This document shows, one piece after another, positions 37,015-63,985 of a stretch of 64,000 nucleotides of DNA. Every line of letters starts with the position of its first letter. Position 1 is the first letter of the stretch. The position numbers were made by a program, and so were the translations under genes. The notes beneath the pieces are model-generated. The model ran no database searches. It had not been told where the DNA came from and saw only the letters and a list, made by a program, of their open reading frames with translations. Origin of the DNA: Escherichia phage LQ5; the sequence record OR677401. One strand, written 5' to 3'.

Positions 37015-37515
37015 ATGAAAAAGTTAATTATCGCAATGAGTATGCTCCTATCAGGTTGTGCGGTCCAATATGGTGATGCAGTTTCGGCTGATGAAGTTGG
37101 TAAAGCTCGTATCGCAGCTGAACAGAAACAATTCGATGGCGAAATGAAATTCCGTGCAGGTTCTGGACTTGTGTACACCCGAGCCAATAATCAATGTGGT
37201 AATAACTGTGCAAAATATGCTCAAAGGGAAATCGAATTCCAACGTGAACAAGAGTCTAAGCGTGAAGCGGTACTAGCCAAACACCAGGCAGAAATGAAGC
37301 GTCAAGATGATTTGTACAAAAAGCAGAAACTGTATGCGATGTGCGTAAACCATATCAATCTACAGATTTCCATCCACGAGGCTCGTTATTACGAAATGCT
37401 CGAAACCGAGAGCTTCGGTAAAGCTCGTGATTATAAGAAACAAATCGATAAGCTCAAGACCAAAGCACCGGCGGCAATAAAACAGTGTATTGAAATCGGT
37501 AAAGATAAGATTTAA
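37015..37515 (+). CDS. lipoprotein
   Basis: lipobox-like LLSGC after signal MKKLIIAMSM. Confidence 0.6.
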   Translation: MKKLIIAMSMLLSGCAVQYGDAVSADEVGKARIAAEQKQFDGEMKFRAGSGLVYTRANNQCGNNCAKYAQREIEFQREQESKREAVLAKHQAEMKRQDDLYKKQKLYAMCVNHINLQISIHEARYYEMLETESFGKARDYKKQIDKLKTKAPAAIKQCIEIGKDKI

Positions 37516-37575
37516 GCAATACCAATTTATTAAAAATAGTGTATAATGTACCTACATTCACTTGAGGAACAGATA

Positions 37576-39249
37576 ATGAAAAAGGTTGTTATTTTAGGCG
37601 CGGGTCTTGGCTCACGGTTGTATCCAATTACCAACGAAATCCCGAAGGTACTGGTTAACTACAAACAACATACTGTATTAAAACATTTGTATGATTTGTA
37701 TAGTAATCAATCAGATGAAATTATTCTGGTTATTCACAGCAAATTTAACGACCTCGTTAAAGGCTATATTAAATCCATTAACATGATTAATAGTGATAAG
37801 CCCAAATTCACTATTCGTAACGTTGATGTTGCCAATGGTTCGGCTCATGCTATCGATTGCATTGCCGAAGATATCATTGGGCACAATGTCTTGTTTAACT
37901 GGTGTGATATTATTCCTGAAGGTCATAAAGTTGAGTGGGATAACGACTACTGTTATACCTATGGGACTGACTGTCGTTTTACATTTGAAGAACCGTACTT
38001 GCGTGAAATTGGTACCGGTGGTGGTGTGGTTGGTTTGTATCAGGTTGCTAATTGGACAGGCTTCAACCGTTCTAATTATGGCGAAGACCTTGCTGATAAC
38101 CTGGATTCGATGGTCCATTTGACCGAACGTAAGCTGGACTTTGTAGTTGATGTCGGTGACAAATTGAAACTGGCTAAGGCCCATGAAGATTCTGAAATTA
38201 ACCGTGAATTTAATAAATTAGAGTTCACTGAGAATCTAGCTATTAAAGTACCTACAAACGAATTAGGTAAAGAAATCCAATCTAAAGAAATCAATTGGTA
38301 CAATTCTATTGATTCTGAATTCGTTCCTAGCATTGTAGACTTTGCTCCAGGTGAATTCATTAAAATGGAACGTATCTTTGGTCGAACCATGGCAGATGCC
38401 TACCGGTTTATGTCTAAAGAAACTAAAGTCCTAATGGTTTATAAGGTTATTAGTGCATTACGTTCGTTCGGTGGAACTATCGATAATCCGTCCGATGAGC
38501 AATGGTATTCTGATGTTAAGAAAGAAGTATTGGACAAGGTCCTTATTCGTAATGCTTCTATTGCCGGATTGATTGAAGGCTTTGCTCCACAGGGTATTAC
38601 CCATGTTAACGACTTCAAGGTAGGCGACCCAGAAAAACTTCTTCGTCACGCCTTAGAAATTCTGTCTGAACATAAAGAACCGTACCAACTTATTCATGGC
38701 GACCCGCACTACAGTAATATTATGTTGTCGGACGAAGGTAATATTAAAATCATCGACCCACGTGGTTATTTTGGTAATAGTTCTAAAGGCCCTGCGATTT
38801 ATGATGAAGCTAAGGTGCTTTATTCTATCGATGGTTATGACAAATTTAACTCTGACCCTCTATGGGGCGGATTAACTCGTAACGGAACTCGTGTATTCGT
38901 TGATATTGAAAAGGTTATGCCTTTAGATGATATTCCGATGTGTACATTTAAGCACAAGCTCTGGATTGCCGTTATTTGGATGGCATTGGCAGGTTACTTT
39001 AAAAATAACCCTCTGAAAGCTCTGGGCGCTTATTACAATGGGCTATATCAACTGAGTGTGCTGCTGAAGCGGCATCCTCGTAAGCGTAAGCTTATCACAG
39101 GTGAATTCGTTGATGAAGTTCGCGACCCTATCACGGCTCAAATTATCACTCGTTGTCCTGATAAGTGGGTTTTGCTTGACCAAGAAACTGGTGTAAAATA
39201 TAAACCTACAGGTTCTACCGAACTCCACAAACAATGGAAGAAAATTTAA
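37576..39249 (+). CDS. bifunctional nucleotidyltransferase / kinase (predicted sugar-1-phosphate nucleotidyltransferase fused to APH/choline-kinase-like kinase)
   Basis: N-terminus ILGAGLGSRLYPITNEIPKVL matches the NTP-transferase glycine loop; C-terminus LIHGDPHYSNIML ... IIDPRGY matches the HGD..N / D-x-x-G kinase catalytic and metal loops. Confidence 0.65.
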   Translation: MKKVVILGAGLGSRLYPITNEIPKVLVNYKQHTVLKHLYDLYSNQSDEIILVIHSKFNDLVKGYIKSINMINSDKPKFTIRNVDVANGSAHAIDCIAEDIIGHNVLFNWCDIIPEGHKVEWDNDYCYTYGTDCRFTFEEPYLREIGTGGGVVGLYQVANWTGFNRSNYGEDLADNLDSMVHLTERKLDFVVDVGDKLKLAKAHEDSEINREFNKLEFTENLAIKVPTNELGKEIQSKEINWYNSIDSEFVPSIVDFAPGEFIKMERIFGRTMADAYRFMSKETKVLMVYKVISALRSFGGTIDNPSDEQWYSDVKKEVLDKVLIRNASIAGLIEGFAPQGITHVNDFKVGDPEKLLRHALEILSEHKEPYQLIHGDPHYSNIMLSDEGNIKIIDPRGYFGNSSKGPAIYDEAKVLYSIDGYDKFNSDPLWGGLTRNGTRVFVDIEKVMPLDDIPMCTFKHKLWIAVIWMALAGYFKNNPLKALGAYYNGLYQLSVLLKRHPRKRKLITGEFVDEVRDPITAQIITRCPDKWVLLDQETGVKYKPTGSTELHKQWKKI

Positions 39250-39608
39250 TGCATCTGTGTTTTGATATCGATAATACCATTACTCACTGGCAAGATGACC
39301 GTGATTACGAAAACTTTAAACCGGACACCGAAATGGTGTCCATGATTAATAAGCTTTATGATGAAGGGTACGAGATTACCTTGTTCACTGCCCGTGGTAT
39401 GACTTCATGCGGCCCGGGTCGAATCTTGGTTGAAGTAGTTCCTGCATTAGTTAAGAACCTTGAAAAGATTGGATTGAAATATCACAATCTGCTTACACAT
39501 AAGCCGAGTTATACTTTTATCATCGATGACCGAGCAATCCGTCCTGACCACTTTAAAGAAATGGTTCGTGAAGGAACTCTTGAAACCTATAAGGCATATC
39601 ATCCGTGA
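39234..39608 (+). CDS. HAD-superfamily phosphatase
   Basis: motif I CFDIDNTIT (DxDxT), motif IV FIIDD; alternative start at 39249. Confidence 0.6.
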   Translation: MEENLMHLCFDIDNTITHWQDDRDYENFKPDTEMVSMINKLYDEGYEITLFTARGMTSCGPGRILVEVVPALVKNLEKIGLKYHNLLTHKPSYTFIIDDRAIRPDHFKEMVREGTLETYKAYHP

Positions 39609-40141
39609 AACCAAAAATCATTGTTATCGACGGCCCGGATAATTCCGGGAAGTCTACTTTAATTGAATCACTTTTATCTGATAAGAAATATCGTCTTATC
39701 GATTTCCCTAAAAAGATTAACGGCAAATGCATTTCATTAGGGACTGATAATGACAAGGCTTTAGTCGAGACGTTGTATAAGTTTTTAGACCCTAATTTTG
39801 TCTACATCTTAGACCGTGGGTATCCTAGTAATATTGTTTACTCTGGATTCCTTCGTGGTGAAATGGACCCTTATGTAGAATTAGCAGATTGGATTGATTT
39901 CAAAAAAGAATTCAATATCATTGAGATTATTTTAACCCGTAATCCATTAGATGAAGACTTTGAAGATGACCTTATTAAATTAACCAAAGATGAGTTCAAC
40001 CTAACTATCCAGCAATATGAAACATGTTTTGAAAACGTGTTTAAAATCTTAAATCACGACGGCCATAATAACTTGCTTAACGTCGATATGGTAGAATTAA
40101 AACGTCTGAATGAATATATTGAAAATAAGGTGAATAAATGA
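39605..40141 (+). CDS. P-loop (thymidylate-kinase-like) nucleotide kinase
   Basis: IVIDGPDNSGKSTL Walker A; LDRGY resembles the Tmk DRY motif. Confidence 0.6.
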   Translation: MKPKIIVIDGPDNSGKSTLIESLLSDKKYRLIDFPKKINGKCISLGTDNDKALVETLYKFLDPNFVYILDRGYPSNIVYSGFLRGEMDPYVELADWIDFKKEFNIIEIILTRNPLDEDFEDDLIKLTKDEFNLTIQQYETCFENVFKILNHDGHNNLLNVDMVELKRLNEYIENKVNK

Positions 40142-40836
40142 AACACATTACCGCTGTTAGTTTTGAAAACGCGTTTAAGCAAATGAACGAAGAAATCCTG
40201 GAAGCTCCACAGTTTGCAGTTGATTCTCGTATCGGCCGTTGTTATGAAATTGGTTCTGCTTCGGTAGAAGTACTGGATGCAAGCACCTATAAATTCACCG
40301 ACCCTCGTATTAATCGTATCAACTATGATTATGCCGAATCCTTTTGGAAGTTTATGATTTCTGGTGGTACTGACGCTGCTGAAGCATTTAAGGAATATCC
40401 TAATGTTGCTAAGTTCATTGATAAGCCGAAAAGTGACGTATTGCCTGCAAACTTCAACACTTTCTATGGACCTCGAATTGTGGCCCAACTCCCGGCCCTA
40501 CTTAAAGAGCTTAAAGAGAAGCCTAACTCAAGACGAGTTGTGTTCCAAATTCTCCAAGAACAAGACCAGGCCCTCCTTGATTCTGACGAATCCTTAGAAT
40601 ACCCATGTACCGATTCGGTGACATATTATATTCGTGATGGACGTCTGTATGCACATACTCATATGCGTTCACAGAACTGTGCTATCGTTATGCAGCTGGA
40701 TTTCTATCTGCAGGGTAAACTGATGGCCTTTATTGCTGAACAGTGTGGTGTTGGTCTGGGTACGTATTCCCATACTATGGTTAGTGCACACGTATTTGAA
40801 CGTGATTTTGACTACGTTCGAGGATTCCTGAAATGA
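40138..40836 (+). CDS. 42: thymidylate-synthase-family pyrimidine hydroxymethylase (dCMP hydroxymethylase-like, gp42 slot)
   Basis: catalytic EYPCTDS cysteine; MRSQNCAIVMQLD aligns by eye with T4 gp42 MRSNDVVFGFRND, Asp at the TS Asn specificity position. Confidence 0.65.
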   Translation: MKHITAVSFENAFKQMNEEILEAPQFAVDSRIGRCYEIGSASVEVLDASTYKFTDPRINRINYDYAESFWKFMISGGTDAAEAFKEYPNVAKFIDKPKSDVLPANFNTFYGPRIVAQLPALLKELKEKPNSRRVVFQILQEQDQALLDSDESLEYPCTDSVTYYIRDGRLYAHTHMRSQNCAIVMQLDFYLQGKLMAFIAEQCGVGLGTYSHTMVSAHVFERDFDYVRGFLK

Positions 40837-41726
40837 GTTTGTTTATCGTTCCTATTTTCAGTATGCGTAGTTACGAAACAGGTGAATATGCCGTCCTTAA
40901 GGACGGTAATTTTCAACTCCATTTAAACCGTGCTTGCCCAGGTGATTATCTGGCTTATCCTAGAAATTCGAGCGATATCAAAGAATGCATTGAATTATTT
41001 CCTGAACTGAATTTTGTACCGCTTTGGTATAAAGAAAATGCTTATGAAACTCGTAAACATTTTTGGTCTGAAAACGAGTTCGTTGTTGATTCGTTAATCG
41101 AATACTATGACTGCTCAGGATTGGTAACCGATATCACAGGTTATGATGGCACTCAGACTGTACAATTCAACTTTAACATTACAATGGACCCTGAAGTTCC
41201 TCGTTATTATATCGACGAGTTTATTGATACCGACGTGTCCTCAGTTGAACGTTCGATTTATACCACAGTCCTGAATCAATGTCAGAAAGACGTCCTGGTG
41301 TCACGAGGTGCGTCCTCTGATAAGATTTTTGTAGACCAAAAGGTAATTAATCCGGCAGTAATTGAGCGTTACTCTGAAGGCCTAGCGCCTATTAAAATTG
41401 ATGGTATTTTCCACCCATTCCGTATTTCGGATAAGTGTTATCAATTCGAAAGAGTTGTAGACCAAGCTGCGGCTGAAGGTGCTCGTCTTTATATCACCGA
41501 CCCGAATGATTCATTTAAGCGTGAAGACTATCGTCCTGATGTAGAGATTATTAAATTCAAACCGAGTAAGGTTGAATATTATCAGATTCTGAAATCAAGA
41601 CCTCATATCATTTATCATGAGAATCCCGGTTTAGTATTCCATCCTGGTCTGGCTGAATTCATTTATTTCGGTGCCCATATCCATTCTGAGCACGAAATGC
41701 CAAGTTATGAGGACGTGGTCCTTTAA
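40833..41726 (+). CDS. hypothetical protein in the beta-glucosyltransferase slot (candidate DNA sugar transferase)
   Basis: 297-aa ORF ATGA-coupled to hydroxymethylase; no recognisable T4 beta-gt similarity. Confidence 0.35.
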   Translation: MSLFIVPIFSMRSYETGEYAVLKDGNFQLHLNRACPGDYLAYPRNSSDIKECIELFPELNFVPLWYKENAYETRKHFWSENEFVVDSLIEYYDCSGLVTDITGYDGTQTVQFNFNITMDPEVPRYYIDEFIDTDVSSVERSIYTTVLNQCQKDVLVSRGASSDKIFVDQKVINPAVIERYSEGLAPIKIDGIFHPFRISDKCYQFERVVDQAAAEGARLYITDPNDSFKREDYRPDVEIIKFKPSKVEYYQILKSRPHIIYHENPGLVFHPGLAEFIYFGAHIHSEHEMPSYEDVVL

Positions 41727-59152: not shown

Positions 59153-60970
59153 ATGATTAAGAATGAAATTAAAGTACTGTCCGACATTGAACATATCAAA
59201 AAACGTAGTGGGATGTATATTGGCTCAAGTGCTAATGAAGCTCACGGTCGATTCCTGTTTGGTAATTTTACACAGGTAAACTATGTTCCTGGACTGGTTA
59301 AATTAATTGATGAAATCATTGATAACTCTGTCGATGAAGCTATTCGTACCAATTTTAAATTCGCAAATAAAATTGATGTTCAAATTAAGAATAACCAGGT
59401 TTCAGTTTCTGATAATGGTCGTGGTATTCCACAAGCAATGGTCACCGACCAAAATGGTGAACAGATTCCAGGTCCTGTAGCTGCATGGACTATTCCAAAG
59501 GCAGGTGGTAACTTTGGAGATGACGCTGAGCGTAAGACAGGCGGCATGAATGGTGTCGGTAGTAGTTTAACTAATATCTTCTCTGTTTTGTTCACAGGCA
59601 TCACCTCTGATGGCGAGAATGAAATTACAGTTAACTGTTCCAACGGAATGGAAAACAAAGGTTGGTCTACTAAGAAATCTAAAGGTAAGGGTACTTCGGT
59701 TATATTCACCCCAGACTTTAATCATTTCGAAGAAAATAGCCTGTCACAAATTTATCTGGATATTACATTAGACCGATTGCAAACTCTGGCCGTAATTTAT
59801 CCTGATATTCAATTTACTTTTAATGGTAAAAAAGTAGATGGCAACTTTAAAAAGTATGCTAAGCAATTTGGTGAAGACTTTGTAATCCAAGAAACTGATA
59901 ACGTTTCGATGGCATTCACTCCTTCTCCGGATGGATTTCGTCAACTGACTTATGTAAACAATATCCACACCAAGAATGGGGGTCATCATGTTGAATGCGT
60001 GTTTGATGATATCTGCGAACATCTCTTGCCAGGCATCAAGAAGAAATATAAAGGCATTGAAGTAACTAAAGCTCGTGTTAAAGAATGCCTTACGATGGTG
60101 ATGTTCATTCGTGATATGAGCAACATGCGTTTTGATTCACAGACTAAAGAACGTTTGACCTCTCCTTTTGGTGAGATTCGCAATCATATCCAAATTGATG
60201 CTAAGAAAATTGCTCAAGCCATTCTTAAAGTTGATGGGTTGATTATGCCTATCGTTGAAGCTGCTTTAGCACGTAAATTAGCAGCTGAAAAGGCTGCCGA
60301 AACTAAAGCCGCTAAGAAAGCTTCTAAAGCCAAGGTCCATAAGCATATTAAAGCTAACTTATATGGCAAAGATGCTGATACCACATTGTTCCTAACCGAA
60401 GGTGATTCCGCTATGGGTCCTTTCATTGAAGTTCGTAATAAAGACCTTCAAGGCGGTTACCCATTGCGTGGTAAGGTTATGAATACCTGGGGAATGACAG
60501 CAACAGATATCATGAAGAACAAGGAACTATTTGATATCTGTGCAATCACTGGATTGGTTATTGGTGAACCCGCAGAGAAAACCAACTATCGTAATATTGC
60601 TATTATGACCGATGCCGATGTGGATGGTACTGGTTCGATTTATCCATCATTGCTAGCCTTCTTTAGTCAATGGCCCGAATTGTTCGAACAAGGCCGAGTA
60701 CGGTTCTGTAAAACTCCGGTGATTATTGCTCAGGTTGGTAAAGAACAGGAATGGTTCTATGATGTGCCTAGTTATACCAAAGCTAAGGACTCTCTACCAA
60801 AACATTCTATTCGGTATATCAAAGGACTAGGTTCTCTTGAGAAAGCTGAATACCGTCGAATGATTCAAGACCCTAAATTTGATGTGGTTCAATTACCTGA
60901 AGATTGGAAAGAACAGTTCGAAATGCTCCTTGGTAATGACCCTCAACTCCGTAAGGCCTGGATGTCGTAA
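59153..60970 (+). CDS. 39: DNA topoisomerase II large subunit gp39, unsplit (includes the region T4 encodes as gene 60)
   Basis: GHKL ATPase N-terminus; C-terminal MTDADVDGTGSIYPSLLAFFSQWPELFEQGR continuous across the T4 gene 60 bypass junction. Confidence 0.9.
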   Translation: MIKNEIKVLSDIEHIKKRSGMYIGSSANEAHGRFLFGNFTQVNYVPGLVKLIDEIIDNSVDEAIRTNFKFANKIDVQIKNNQVSVSDNGRGIPQAMVTDQNGEQIPGPVAAWTIPKAGGNFGDDAERKTGGMNGVGSSLTNIFSVLFTGITSDGENEITVNCSNGMENKGWSTKKSKGKGTSVIFTPDFNHFEENSLSQIYLDITLDRLQTLAVIYPDIQFTFNGKKVDGNFKKYAKQFGEDFVIQETDNVSMAFTPSPDGFRQLTYVNNIHTKNGGHHVECVFDDICEHLLPGIKKKYKGIEVTKARVKECLTMVMFIRDMSNMRFDSQTKERLTSPFGEIRNHIQIDAKKIAQAILKVDGLIMPIVEAALARKLAAEKAAETKAAKKASKAKVHKHIKANLYGKDADTTLFLTEGDSAMGPFIEVRNKDLQGGYPLRGKVMNTWGMTATDIMKNKELFDICAITGLVIGEPAEKTNYRNIAIMTDADVDGTGSIYPSLLAFFSQWPELFEQGRVRFCKTPVIIAQVGKEQEWFYDVPSYTKAKDSLPKHSIRYIKGLGSLEKAEYRRMIQDPKFDVVQLPEDWKEQFEMLLGNDPQLRKAWMS

Positions 60971-61014
60971 TAAATATGTATGGTACTAATTGGTACCATA
61001 CAAAAGGAGACTTT

Positions 61015-61176
61015 ATGAGAAAGTACTGGGTTACGCTCGTCACCGGTGAATACGGTTATATCTGGACTGATACTAGACCTCAGTTTGCAGAATACGTGAC
61101 TATTACAGTCGAGACATGGGACGGCGAAGTTTACCAAACCCGCGGACAAGTCTATAAGGTCGATTCAAGTAACTAA
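61015..61176 (+). CDS. micro-protein (53 aa)
   Basis: AAGGAGA before ATG 61015. Confidence 0.4.
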   Translation: MRKYWVTLVTGEYGYIWTDTRPQFAEYVTITVETWDGEVYQTRGQVYKVDSSN

Positions 61177-61183
61177 ACTAATA

Positions 61184-61203
61184 AGGGCCTTCGGGCCCTT
61201 TTC
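61184..61203 (+). terminator. rho-independent terminator
   Basis: gggcc-ttcg-ggccc then TTTT. Confidence 0.7.
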
Positions 61204-61253
61204 GGGGTTTACAAAGACCTGTGGTTATGATAGGATTATCTAGAGGTGAGAAT

Positions 61254-61577
61254 ATGATTATGCAAGATAACAGTATAGTGAACACTGACAACCTGGCTCT
61301 ATCCTTTATGGAAACAGCCATACGAAATTGTAAGGACGAAGGAATAGTGACTACAAGCGGTAAGGGACTTGAATACCTTAAGGCTGTAAAATCTATTGCC
61401 TTAAAGATTAAAGATAACCAGGCGCTCTCTCCTGTGGTCCAGGAAAAGGTTTTAGAGATAATGTATCGCCATCGGGATCACAAGAGTACAATGGGTTCTA
61501 TGAGAAGAATTCTGGCTGAACTAGGTTCTACCAGAGAATATGTTCAACATGAGGTAGTTAAAAATGACAAACTTTAA
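61254..61577 (+). CDS. hypothetical protein
   Basis: GAGGTGAG before ATG 61254. Confidence 0.55.
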   Translation: MIMQDNSIVNTDNLALSFMETAIRNCKDEGIVTTSGKGLEYLKAVKSIALKIKDNQALSPVVQEKVLEIMYRHRDHKSTMGSMRRILAELGSTREYVQHEVVKNDKL

Positions 61578-61767
61578 AGTGAATATTGATTTGTTCGATA
61601 AAGCCGTCCATAAAGAATTCCGGTTAATCCAACGATTTTTTGATATCAATGCGGCTGAGGATTTTAAAGAACGCTTTAAAGAAATCAGATATAAAATACT
61701 CAACGACATCGCTACTAAGGACGAGCTCCTTGAAGTGGCAGACATTTTTAAACGTAACCTGAATTGA
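61564..61767 (+). CDS. hypothetical protein
   Basis: ORF 67 aa upstream of rIIA. Confidence 0.5.
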   Translation: MTNFKVNIDLFDKAVHKEFRLIQRFFDINAAEDFKERFKEIRYKILNDIATKDELLEVADIFKRNLN

Positions 61768-61774
61768 GAAAAAT

Positions 61775-63985
61775 ATGATTATTGAAACCGAAAAAGAACA
61801 AATCATTGGTAATGGTGCTAAGTCCACAGGCTTTACTATTCAGGCATCGCCTAAGGTCTTTAAAATTTTGTCATCAGACCTTTATAGTAATAAAGTACGT
61901 GCCGTAGTTCGTGAACTAATTACCAACATGATTGATGCCCATATTCTAAATGGTAATAAAGAACGTTGGAAAGTACAGGTTCCTGGTAAACTAGACCCTC
62001 GCTTTGTATGTCGTGATTTCGGTCCGGGTATGAGTGATTTCCAAATTCGTGGTGATGAAAACGAAACAGGTTTGTACAACTCTTATTTCGCATCATCCAA
62101 AACGGCTTCTAACGATTTCATCGGTGGCTTTGGCCTTGGTTCAAAATCTCCGTTCAGTTATACCGAAACGTTTAATATCACCTCATGGCATAACGGTGAA
62201 GTTCGTGGTTATGTAGCTTATATGGATGGTGATGGCCCGCAGATTAAACCTACTTTCGTAGAACCCATGCAGCCAGGTGATAAAACAGGTATCGAAATCA
62301 CGGTTCCTGTTGATGAAGAAGATTTCCGTAAGTTTGAAACTGAAGTTCGTTATATCATGCGGCCTTTCATTGGTCTTGGTGATGTAGACGGTGTTGAAGT
62401 TGATTATTTCCCTGAATTTGACGATTACCATCCTGTAACCACTACAAATTATGGCAGCTTCGAACGTTCAGGACTTTATGCAGTTTATGGTGGTATTGTT
62501 TATCCATTGGATTCCGCCTATAATAAAGGCACGTGGATGCGTACTCGCCATGATGTGGTTTATATTAAGTTCCCTATGGGTTCACTGGATATTGCTCCTT
62601 CTCGTGAAGTGTTGTCTCTTGATAAACGTACGATGGAAAATATTGCAACCCGTATCGAAGCACTGGATGCAGTGGTCTTTAAAAACGATACACAGGAATG
62701 GGTTGAATCTGATAATCCACGCCATGTTTATCGTGACCTTTCTAACCTTGGTTACAGTGCTCGTGACTATCTTACCAAAAAAGGTGGAACTAGCCTGTTT
62801 ACTACAGAAAAATTGACATATGAGAAATTATACCAGCGTTATACCCTTCAAAACGACCTTATTAATTTAGGTGTGGTTTACGAAGTCGTTTCAGACCCAC
62901 GTTTGAAACGAATTAAGTCAAGTGGTAATACTTCTTCGGTAGCAGGACTTAGTAATTTATTAGGCATTAATAAGAAAGAAATCCATGTTGTTTATGATGA
63001 TGAAAAAGGTCGTGTGCCGTTAGTTCGAGGTCTTTGGGCTCTGGCAATGGACAACAGTGCTTCGGCTAAGAAAATTGTTAAAGAGAACAATATTCCTAAA
63101 TACGGAACTGACCTTATTTTTGTCGACCCAAATTCAATGTTGCAAATGCAACAACTTGAAAAGGTTAAAGAACTTTTTAAAGGTGACATAATTCATTTTT
63201 ATAAAGTCTCTGAACTGAATAAAATTGTTAAGCCATGGATTCCGGTTACTGTCCGTTCATCAGAACCGCGCCCTAAAACACCAAGTGCTTATCGTTGGTT
63301 TATTAAAGACGGGCGCTGGCAACAAGAGACCATGTATTTGACTGCTGCCGAAGCAGAAGAAATTACAGGTTATGTTCTGTTTGGTAGCCGTTCTGATATC
63401 ATGGGAATGGATGAAGCTTATGGTATCTTTGACATCAATACCACTACCATGTGTCGTATGGCTAATTTGATTGGTGCTACCGAATTCCATATCATTCGCC
63501 CTCAGATTGCCAAAAAGATTAAAAAGTTAGGCCAGTGTGAATGCTTGATGGAAGCTACATTAGAAGCCTATGCCAAAGCTCTAGATGCGGTAGATGTTGA
63601 TGATTACCTTGGTAGTAATACCCGTGCTCGGTATTACCTTGAAATTATTGCCAAGTTCCCTGAGCTCGGTTTCATGACCAAGTATTTCAGTGATAAACCT
63701 GTGACTGAAGCATATACTCGTCTGAGTAATTTCTATGATATATTCCGTTATATGAATTTCCATGGTTATATCACTGATGACAAGCTTTCCGTTATCAAGA
63801 AAATTTGTAACAATACTTTTTTTAAGTTGACTGATAATGCTTCAAGCAACAATGATAAAATGACTGTACAGTTTGAATCTGATTACCATTTAGTTTCAGA
63901 CTACATGTATCGTCGTGGAACATCCATTACCGAGGCTTCTGTAGCTCAAATTGTTAAATTCATGAAAGCCGTGGAAGCGGCTTAA
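61775..63985 (+). CDS. rIIA: rIIA protein (membrane-associated, GHKL-like ATPase fold)
   Basis: collinear with T4 rIIA as recalled (KVFKILSSDLY.NK.RAVVRELITNMIDAH ... RFVCRDFGPGMSDF). Confidence 0.95.
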   Translation: MIIETEKEQIIGNGAKSTGFTIQASPKVFKILSSDLYSNKVRAVVRELITNMIDAHILNGNKERWKVQVPGKLDPRFVCRDFGPGMSDFQIRGDENETGLYNSYFASSKTASNDFIGGFGLGSKSPFSYTETFNITSWHNGEVRGYVAYMDGDGPQIKPTFVEPMQPGDKTGIEITVPVDEEDFRKFETEVRYIMRPFIGLGDVDGVEVDYFPEFDDYHPVTTTNYGSFERSGLYAVYGGIVYPLDSAYNKGTWMRTRHDVVYIKFPMGSLDIAPSREVLSLDKRTMENIATRIEALDAVVFKNDTQEWVESDNPRHVYRDLSNLGYSARDYLTKKGGTSLFTTEKLTYEKLYQRYTLQNDLINLGVVYEVVSDPRLKRIKSSGNTSSVAGLSNLLGINKKEIHVVYDDEKGRVPLVRGLWALAMDNSASAKKIVKENNIPKYGTDLIFVDPNSMLQMQQLEKVKELFKGDIIHFYKVSELNKIVKPWIPVTVRSSEPRPKTPSAYRWFIKDGRWQQETMYLTAAEAEEITGYVLFGSRSDIMGMDEAYGIFDINTTTMCRMANLIGATEFHIIRPQIAKKIKKLGQCECLMEATLEAYAKALDAVDVDDYLGSNTRARYYLEIIAKFPELGFMTKYFSDKPVTEAYTRLSNFYDIFRYMNFHGYITDDKLSVIKKICNNTFFKLTDNASSNNDKMTVQFESDYHLVSDYMYRRGTSITEASVAQIVKFMKAVEAA

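Follow-up and report, generated by a model that had tools for sequence, protein, structure and literature searches.

The fused kinase–nucleotidyltransferase gene of a Dhakavirus: a probable orthologue of AfhE, the UDP-D-arabinofuranose-forming enzyme of phage DNA cytosine modification

Introduction

In phage RB69, ORF053c and ORF052c together form one gene of 561 residues, for whose product the synthesis of UDP-arabinose has been proposed; gp43 of phage IME08 was listed explicitly as a full-length homologue (Thomas et al. 2018, PMC6024577). The DNA of RB69 and of Acinetobacter phage DLP3 carries arabinofuranosyl groups on 5-hydroxycytosine, not on hydroxymethylcytosine, and RB69 gp48 has been shown experimentally to make 5-hydroxy-dCMP (Lee et al. 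2026, PMC13326640). The same authors equate RB69 gp52:53 and gp51 with AfhE and AfhF, and the role proposed for gp46:47 is that of the first arabinosyltransferase (PMC13326640). As summarised in that paper, He et al. 2026 report that the kinase of AfhE from HY126 acts on D-arabinose 5-phosphate to give the 1,5-bisphosphate (Ara5P to Ara1,5P2) and that the enzyme also joins Ara1P and UTP to give UDP-Araf. The same summary describes AfhF as a Mg-dependent phosphatase of the 1,5-bisphosphate, acting before the nucleotidyltransferase step. In related phages, arabinosyl-5-hydroxycytosine blocks restriction enzymes and shapes the sensitivity to other defence systems. Both the enzyme family and its role are on published record, as is its occurrence in phages of the JS98/IME08 type.

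Among better known sugar-activating systems, the nucleotide-heptose pathway offers the best analogy in logic, with an isomerase, a kinase that yields a bisphosphate, a HAD phosphatase and a nucleotidyltransferase. The enzymes for ADP- and GDP-heptose are GmhA (SIS isomerase), HldE or HddA (kinase), GmhB (HAD phosphatase) and HldE-C or HddC (nucleotidyltransferase), with kinase and transferase fused in HldE. The kinase folds (ribokinase-like in HldE, GHMP in HddA) are, however, unrelated to the APH/choline-kinase fold found here, and the heptose that is activated ends up in LPS or capsule, not in DNA. AmgK/MurU and LicA/LicC have the folds of the present enzyme on separate proteins. AmgK/MurU start from a free sugar, have no phosphatase step and serve cell-wall recycling (of MurNAc); LicA/LicC have a non-sugar substrate and an unrelated context. 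FKP and the Leishmania arabinokinase/pyrophosphorylase do unite a sugar kinase and an NDP-sugar pyrophosphorylase in one polypeptide, yet the likeness extends only to the idea of fusion, as they have a GHMP-fold kinase, salvage free sugars, use GDP as the carrier and involve no phosphatase step.

Here we analyse a fused gene of this kind in a window of Escherichia phage LQ5, by which we mean the whole 64-kb stretch of DNA studied. We consider the gene very probably the Dhakavirus orthologue of AfhE (RB69 gp52:53, DLP3 gp82), which would make UDP-D-arabinofuranose for DNA cytosine modification. Domain identity, catalytic residues, homology and neighbourhood come from our analysis; substrate, step order, UDP carrier and DNA product are taken from the literature on homologues. 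No experiments on the protein itself or on Dhakavirus DNA were found in the literature.

Results

The phage and the gene

Escherichia phage QL01 matches the window at 98.6% identity, and other T4-like phages of the Dhakavirus (JS98/IME08) type do so at 94–98%; judged by these identities, the window is from a Dhakavirus, a T4-like coliphage. IME08 groups with it. The QL01 counterpart of the gene is annotated as a ‘hypothetical protein’ and lies between DNA polymerase gp43 and UvsX. JS98-type phages possess a homologue of gene 42 and lack glucosyltransferases (PMC2993671); this combination was counted as independent support for an arabinosylation pathway.

The open reading frame (Table 1) runs uninterrupted for 557 codons plus a stop codon, and stop codons abound on the opposite strand. 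The gene is confirmed as real and clean. The mechanical list of open reading frames begins it at ATG 37546, but this codon falls within a TATAAT hexamer. The start at 37576 is better because a GAGGAA ribosome-binding site precedes it, because homologues start MKK.VILGAG, which corresponds to the residue at 37576, and because the QL01 gene is annotated from the equivalent position. G+C is uniform at about 39% across the region, so that the gene carries no mark of recent import.

Table 1. Features of the fused gene and the modification cluster (positions in the window; identities are to RB69 proteins)
Feature	Position	Strand	Evidence or remark
Ribosome-binding site GAGGAA	37564..37569	+	8 nt before ATG 37576; read from the sequence
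AfhE-like bifunctional enzyme, 557 aa: putative sugar-phosphate anomeric kinase and UDP-sugar pyrophosphorylase	37576..39249	+	Motifs, Pfam, phrog_4098, RB69 homology, AF2 model
N-terminal nucleotidyltransferase domain, aa 1–205	37576..38190	+	
Kinase domain, APH/choline-kinase fold, aa 210–500	38203..39075	+	
C-terminal tail, ~55 aa	39076..39246	+	Modelled as short strands, pLDDT 83–93
HAD-family phosphatase, 124 aa, AfhF/RB69 gp51 homologue	39234..39608	+	62% identity to gp51, E 6e-64
P-loop nucleotide-kinase-like protein (putative role), RB69 gp45 homologue	39605..40141	+	38% identity, E 2e-36
5-Hydroxy-dCMP synthase (thymidylate synthase homologue)	40138..40836	+	79% identity to gp48, E 1e-145
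Putative DNA arabinosyltransferase, 297 aa, RB69 gp46:47 homologue	40833..41726	+	69%/64% identity to gp47/gp46

Domains, catalytic residues and structure model

The original prediction had read the protein as a sugar-1-phosphate nucleotidyltransferase fused to an anomeric kinase of the APH/choline-kinase fold, and on this Pfam, the invariant residues and the structure model agree. The four motifs that it quoted are all present in the 557-residue translation: ILGAGLGSRLYPIT (aa 6–19) and PKVL (aa 23–26), and in the kinase half LIHGDPHYSNIML (aa 372–384) and IIDPRGY (aa 392–398). Its division into about 230 and 300 residues is close to that of the model, in which a short tail follows the two domains. 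The profile search that it had proposed gave matches to NTP_transferase at aa 3–100 (34.3 bits, curated Pfam cut-off 21.2) and to APH at aa 346–417 (26.1 bits, cut-off 23.2). NCBIfam gave sub-threshold matches only, to sugar-1-phosphate nucleotidyltransferases (archaeal GlmU, AglF, MurU, RmlA, and HddC). In PHROGs, phrog_4098 matches end to end (aa 1–557, E 5e-269) and carries the function label ‘unknown’.

We collected 191 homologues and aligned 69 of them to identify invariant columns. Both active sites are intact. In the nucleotidyltransferase domain, G10 and R14 of the G-x-G-x-R loop, K24, D111, D192 and D195 are invariant. In the kinase domain, K224, E238, H374-G375-D376, N381 and D394 are invariant; these form the full catalytic set of APH/choline-kinase-type kinases (β3 lysine, helix-C glutamate, HGD loop, asparagine and Mg-binding aspartate). 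A further five basic residues, K321, R325, R396, K413 and K481, are conserved throughout the 69 sequences and could hold a phosphorylated substrate. The last invariant column is G489. Among the 191 homologues, the closer ones, mostly from T4-like phages, cover 98–100% of the query, and those below about 37% identity mostly cover only 85–90%; the C-terminal tail is apparently confined to the closer (T4-like phage) homologues.

An AlphaFold2 model built from the homologue alignment has a pLDDT of 94.4 and a pTM of 0.91. Its N-terminal half matches MurU, RmlA, LicC and HddC; MurU ranks among the best of these matches, which bears out the likeness already suggested. The C-terminal half matches choline/ethanolamine kinases (15.8), LicA (15.6) and glucosamine kinase (15.3), with further matches to aminoglycoside kinases and maltokinase (13.9). 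By sequence, the best PDB match of the N-terminal domain is HddC; the PDB holds no structure of an AfhE-type protein or a close relative, the matches being to nucleotidyltransferases and weak.

The model also bears on the main alternative of the original prediction, a LicA/LicC-like phosphocholine (or other non-sugar) route in which a choline kinase would be fused to a CTP:phosphocholine cytidylyltransferase. Both proteins do appear among the structural matches, but sugar-nucleotide enzymes match at least as well, and neither Pfam nor NCBIfam yielded a choline-kinase or LicC model at E values up to 1. The surrounding genes form a module for DNA cytosine modification, SIS sugar-phosphate isomerases are found fused to related proteins or encoded next to them, and the homologue of the RB69 type (gp52:53) is tied to arabinose chemistry (PMC13326640). 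Neighbourhood and homology being at odds with it, we regard the phosphocholine route as hardly credible.

Relationship to RB69 gp52:53

Both parts of the RB69 gene align over their whole length with the window protein, gp53 at 44% identity (E 1e-46) and gp52 at 41% identity (E 2e-72), and proteins of the Mosigvirus (RB69-like) type, among them those from phages moha and PhAPEC2, are about 42.5% identical to it. The fused enzyme is matched by 367 phage records, all with at least 80% query coverage. AfhE of HY126, RB69 gp52:53 (ORF53_52c) and DLP3 gp82 have the same two-domain architecture as the window protein, which with 557 residues is close to the 561 of its counterpart. The catalytic residues are the same as in RB69-type AfhE, an AfhF-like HAD phosphatase lies directly downstream in both, and in both the module is located between DNA polymerase and UvsX, together with a 5hodCMP synthase and a transferase. 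The differences are that the enzymes are only about 42% identical and that the gene order is rearranged in Dhakavirus.

When aligned with RB69 gp48, the solved structures 9iqc and 9iqu (‘thymidylate synthase’) show only three differing positions; the crystallised synthase is thus of the RB69 type. The near-identity of 9iqc to RB69 gp48 suggests that RB69 can reasonably stand in for HY126, the phage of the AfhE experiments.

The downstream cluster

The four genes after the fused gene overlap at every junction between them, and the start of the first overlaps or abuts the fused-gene stop codon. An AfhF-type HAD phosphatase, a 5hodCMP synthase and a putative arabinosyltransferase, the genes associated with AfhE-type enzymes, are all found directly downstream.

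The phosphatase matches the capsule biosynthesis phosphatase model TIGR01689 (1.6e-14) and also HAD-IIIA, with weak Pfam matches to Hydrolase_3 and PNK3P; the DxDxT motif is visible as FDIDNT. RefSeq and PHROGs misname it ‘phosphoheptose isomerase’, and the names ‘hypothetical protein’ and ‘thymidylate synthase’ are likewise wrong for other members of the cluster. The P-loop protein matches phrog_761 (‘thymidylate kinase’) and has only weak P-loop matches in Pfam and NCBIfam. The 5-hydroxy-dCMP synthase matches 9iqu and 9iqc at E 1.5e-125. The putative arabinosyltransferase matches phrog_3891 over its full length, with no family match in Pfam or NCBIfam.

Genes of RB69 that the Dhakavirus cluster lacks

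RB69 has an isomerase (gp55), a U32-like protein (gp50), gp49 and a second transferase (gp3), whereas the Dhakavirus cluster is without all four. By tblastn, no homologue of gp55, gp50 or gp3 is present in the 64-kb window, a stretch that begins well ahead of the DNA polymerase gene and takes in the gp39–rIIA interval, the site of gp3 in RB69; gp49 has no homologue in the Dhakavirus cluster. The window thus holds no phage-encoded SIS arabinose-5-phosphate isomerase. The annotation of QL01 lists no isomerase between 35 and 85 kb either.

The phage collection shows the same pattern. In it, 176 Escherichia, 15 Shigella and 8 ‘Enterobacteria’ records carry the fused enzyme, against 137, 14 and 3, respectively, for the isomerase. 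The differences (39, 1 and 5) equal the counts of Dhakavirus-type records, which indicates that Dhakavirus-type genomes are without the isomerase. Klebsiella and Proteus phages with a 71–80% identical enzyme are likewise missing from the isomerase list. Every Escherichia match to gp3 shows 95% identity or more to the RB69 protein, so that no Dhakavirus carries gp3. An association with a phage isomerase is common for AfhE-type enzymes but not defining, the substrate being also a host metabolite.

A 166-residue reading frame upstream of the fused gene (37015–37515) occupies the place of the SIS isomerase in RB69 and was considered as a diverged isomerase. It has no similarity to RB69 gp55 and no family in Pfam or NCBIfam. 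In phages of Serratia, Enterobacter and Erwinia its homologues adjoin a genuine isomerase, and they occur also in VR20/SP18-type coliphages, which we take to be Gaprivervirus. The candidate was rejected.

Because the phage encodes no isomerase, we infer that arabinose 5-phosphate is supplied by KdsD/GutQ of the host (Kdo pathway). The one local peculiarity is the minimal gene set: the cluster has a single transferase and neither a phage isomerase nor a U32-like gene. This stripped-down cluster predicts reliance on host arabinose 5-phosphate and, with a single transferase and no gp3, one arabinose per cytosine and no arabinobiose.

The small gene set could also be read in another way. The Dhakavirus enzyme might activate a different host pentose phosphate (a ribose or xylose derivative), for example ribose 5-phosphate via ribose 1,5-bisphosphate, or use a nucleotide other than UTP, and so place another sugar on the DNA. 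In line with this are the identity of just 42% or so to the Mosigvirus enzyme, the cluster without SIS isomerase and U32-like gene, the apparent lack of the isomerase from every Dhakavirus-type record, and the discussion of the pentose of Shewanella phage Thanatos as possibly xylose. On the other side, about 60 columns, many of which lie beyond the generic catalytic motifs, stay unchanged all the way from Dhakavirus to the jumbo-phage homologues, and the transferase and the 5hodCMP synthase remain 64–79% identical to their RB69 counterparts. Arabinose 5-phosphate is, moreover, a normal metabolite of Gram-negative hosts, where KdsD makes it for Kdo synthesis. Dhakaviruses are also listed among the genera in which conserved 5hodC biosynthesis is inferred from the synteny of the modification region (Lee et al. 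2026, PMC13326640). We consider another pentose or nucleotide very unlikely; if it were true, JS98/QL01-type phages would carry a DNA sugar modification so far undescribed. A milder departure from RB69, mono-arabinosyl-5-hydroxycytosine with strict dependence on host KdsD/GutQ, is more likely than this.

The proposed pathway

On the AfhE reading, the C-terminal kinase domain would convert D-arabinofuranose 5-phosphate to the 1,5-bisphosphate by phosphorylating C1 at the expense of ATP. The HAD phosphatase encoded directly 3′ would then take off the 5-phosphate. The N-terminal nucleotidyltransferase domain would join the resulting arabinofuranose 1-phosphate with UTP to form UDP-D-arabinofuranose, from which the glycosyltransferase of the cluster would move the arabinose onto 5-hydroxycytosine of the phage DNA. 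The adjacent thymidylate synthase homologue would make this base as 5-hydroxy-dCMP. The order of the reactions follows the secondary summary of He et al. 2026 given in PMC13326640.

The original prediction had instead envisaged a two-step salvage of a free sugar. Applied to this cluster, such a route would have the HAD phosphatase free D-arabinose, the kinase act on it at C1 and the nucleotidyltransferase complete UDP-arabinose, on the pattern of AmgK/MurU or FKP. Glucosamine kinase and maltokinase, which are structural neighbours of the kinase half, act on unphosphorylated sugars, and the genomic evidence reads the same for either order of steps. Table 1 of PMC13326640 gives this order too, with RB69 gp51 entered as ‘dephosphorylates Araf5p to Ara’ and the kinase domain as ‘Phosphorylates Ara to Araf1p’. 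The text of that paper, however, citing He et al. 2026, has AfhE convert Araf5P to Araf1,5P before AfhF dephosphorylates it. The phosphatase fold is said there to resemble heptose-1,7-bisphosphate phosphatase, and the enzyme belongs to HAD-IIIA, which fits the logic of the ADP-heptose pathway. Salvage of the AmgK/MurU or FKP type is also disfavoured by the dedicated HAD phosphatase, translationally coupled and directly downstream, and by the AfhE/AfhF literature as summarised in that source. We consider the free-sugar order unlikely and retain phosphorylation of arabinose 5-phosphate as the first step.

An NDP-pentose as the product is in line with the AfhE literature as far as PMC13326640 reports it, and so is arabinose, which had been put forward as a test substrate; the L-arabinose then named does not fit, the sugar in relatives being D-arabinofuranose (PMC13326640). 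As to purpose, the synthesis of an NDP-sugar stands, but the hypermodification of cytosine in phage DNA and the already described enzyme family had been missed. The enzyme almost certainly supplies the activated sugar for this hypermodification, arabinosyl-5-hydroxycytosine.

Distant homologues

The combination of domains recurs in more distant proteins, which lends the pathway independent support. Metagenomic proteins of about 920–946 residues are four-domain fusions in the order HAD–SIS–nucleotidyltransferase–kinase, and on two jumbo-phage-like contigs (315 and 343 kb) a SIS gene is located directly upstream of a 31–32% identical homologue. That the roughly 31% identical homologues on these contigs are bacterial genes was considered and rejected, as their neighbourhoods look like those of jumbo phages, with a UvrD-type helicase, topoisomerase II subunits and many small open reading frames.

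Gene neighbourhood of the fused enzyme

The gene for the fused nucleotidyltransferase–kinase is followed by four genes, encoding a phosphatase, a P-loop protein, the 5hodCMP synthase and a transferase, which overlap by 4 nt at all three of their internal junctions. The stop codon of the fused gene is itself overlapped or abutted by the phosphatase gene; together, this arrangement suggests that translation of the whole module would be coupled. Upstream, a perfect TATAAT hexamer has no matching −35 element and for this reason is absent from the consensus promoter scan list; it may serve as a phage middle-type promoter.

Features in and around the module (window coordinates unless a locus or QL01 is named)
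Feature	Position	Remarks
166-aa ORF, phrog_1754	37015-37515	Between imm and fused enzyme
TATAAT hexamer, perfect	37542-37547	29 nt 5' of fused enzyme start codon
C-terminal tail, ~55 aa (aa 501-557 of fused enzyme)	39076-39246	Confident model
HAD phosphatase, AfhF/RB69 gp51 homologue	39234-39608	DxDxT motif
Junction region of four downstream genes	39247-40836	3' of fused enzyme
gp39 to rIIA.1 interval	about 59200-61900	QL01 2475-3038
Four-domain fusion protein P0093	L006 14-2854	
SIS gene and fused-enzyme homologue	L003 7297-9665	
SIS gene and fused-enzyme homologue	L007 6152-8614	

The phosphatase is labelled 'phosphoheptose isomerase' in RefSeq QL01, RefSeq RB69 and PHROG (phrog_1238). No SIS or isomerase signature is present in the protein, and the label therefore looks like a propagated error. 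The 166-aa ORF lies where RB69 has its isomerase, but bears no relation to SIS proteins and was rejected as a replacement for that enzyme. Homologues of this ORF are found in VR20/SP18-type coliphages and also in Serratia, Enterobacter and Erwinia phages, where they adjoin a genuine isomerase. Between gp39 and rIIA.1, where RB69 carries its second arabinosyltransferase (gp3), the window phage lacks gp3; its only two ORFs there are small and hypothetical, with lengths of 53 and 107 aa in QL01.

Distant homologues

The C-terminal tail of the fused enzyme comes after G489, the last invariant column, and may dock the two domains together. Because coverage of the query is only 85–90% for the more distant homologues, the tail may be missing from them.

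In metagenomic proteins of ~920–946 aa (P0093 and P0068), HAD, SIS, nucleotidyltransferase and kinase form a single chain; the gene after that of P0093 encodes a sulfotransferase. On two contigs of 315 and 343 kb (L003 and L007), which look like jumbo phages, a SIS gene lies immediately 5' of a homologue of the fused enzyme (31–32% identical). This pairing on two such contigs suggests that pentose activation may be widespread among large phages. Both homologues are located near genes for a UvrD-type helicase and topoisomerase II.
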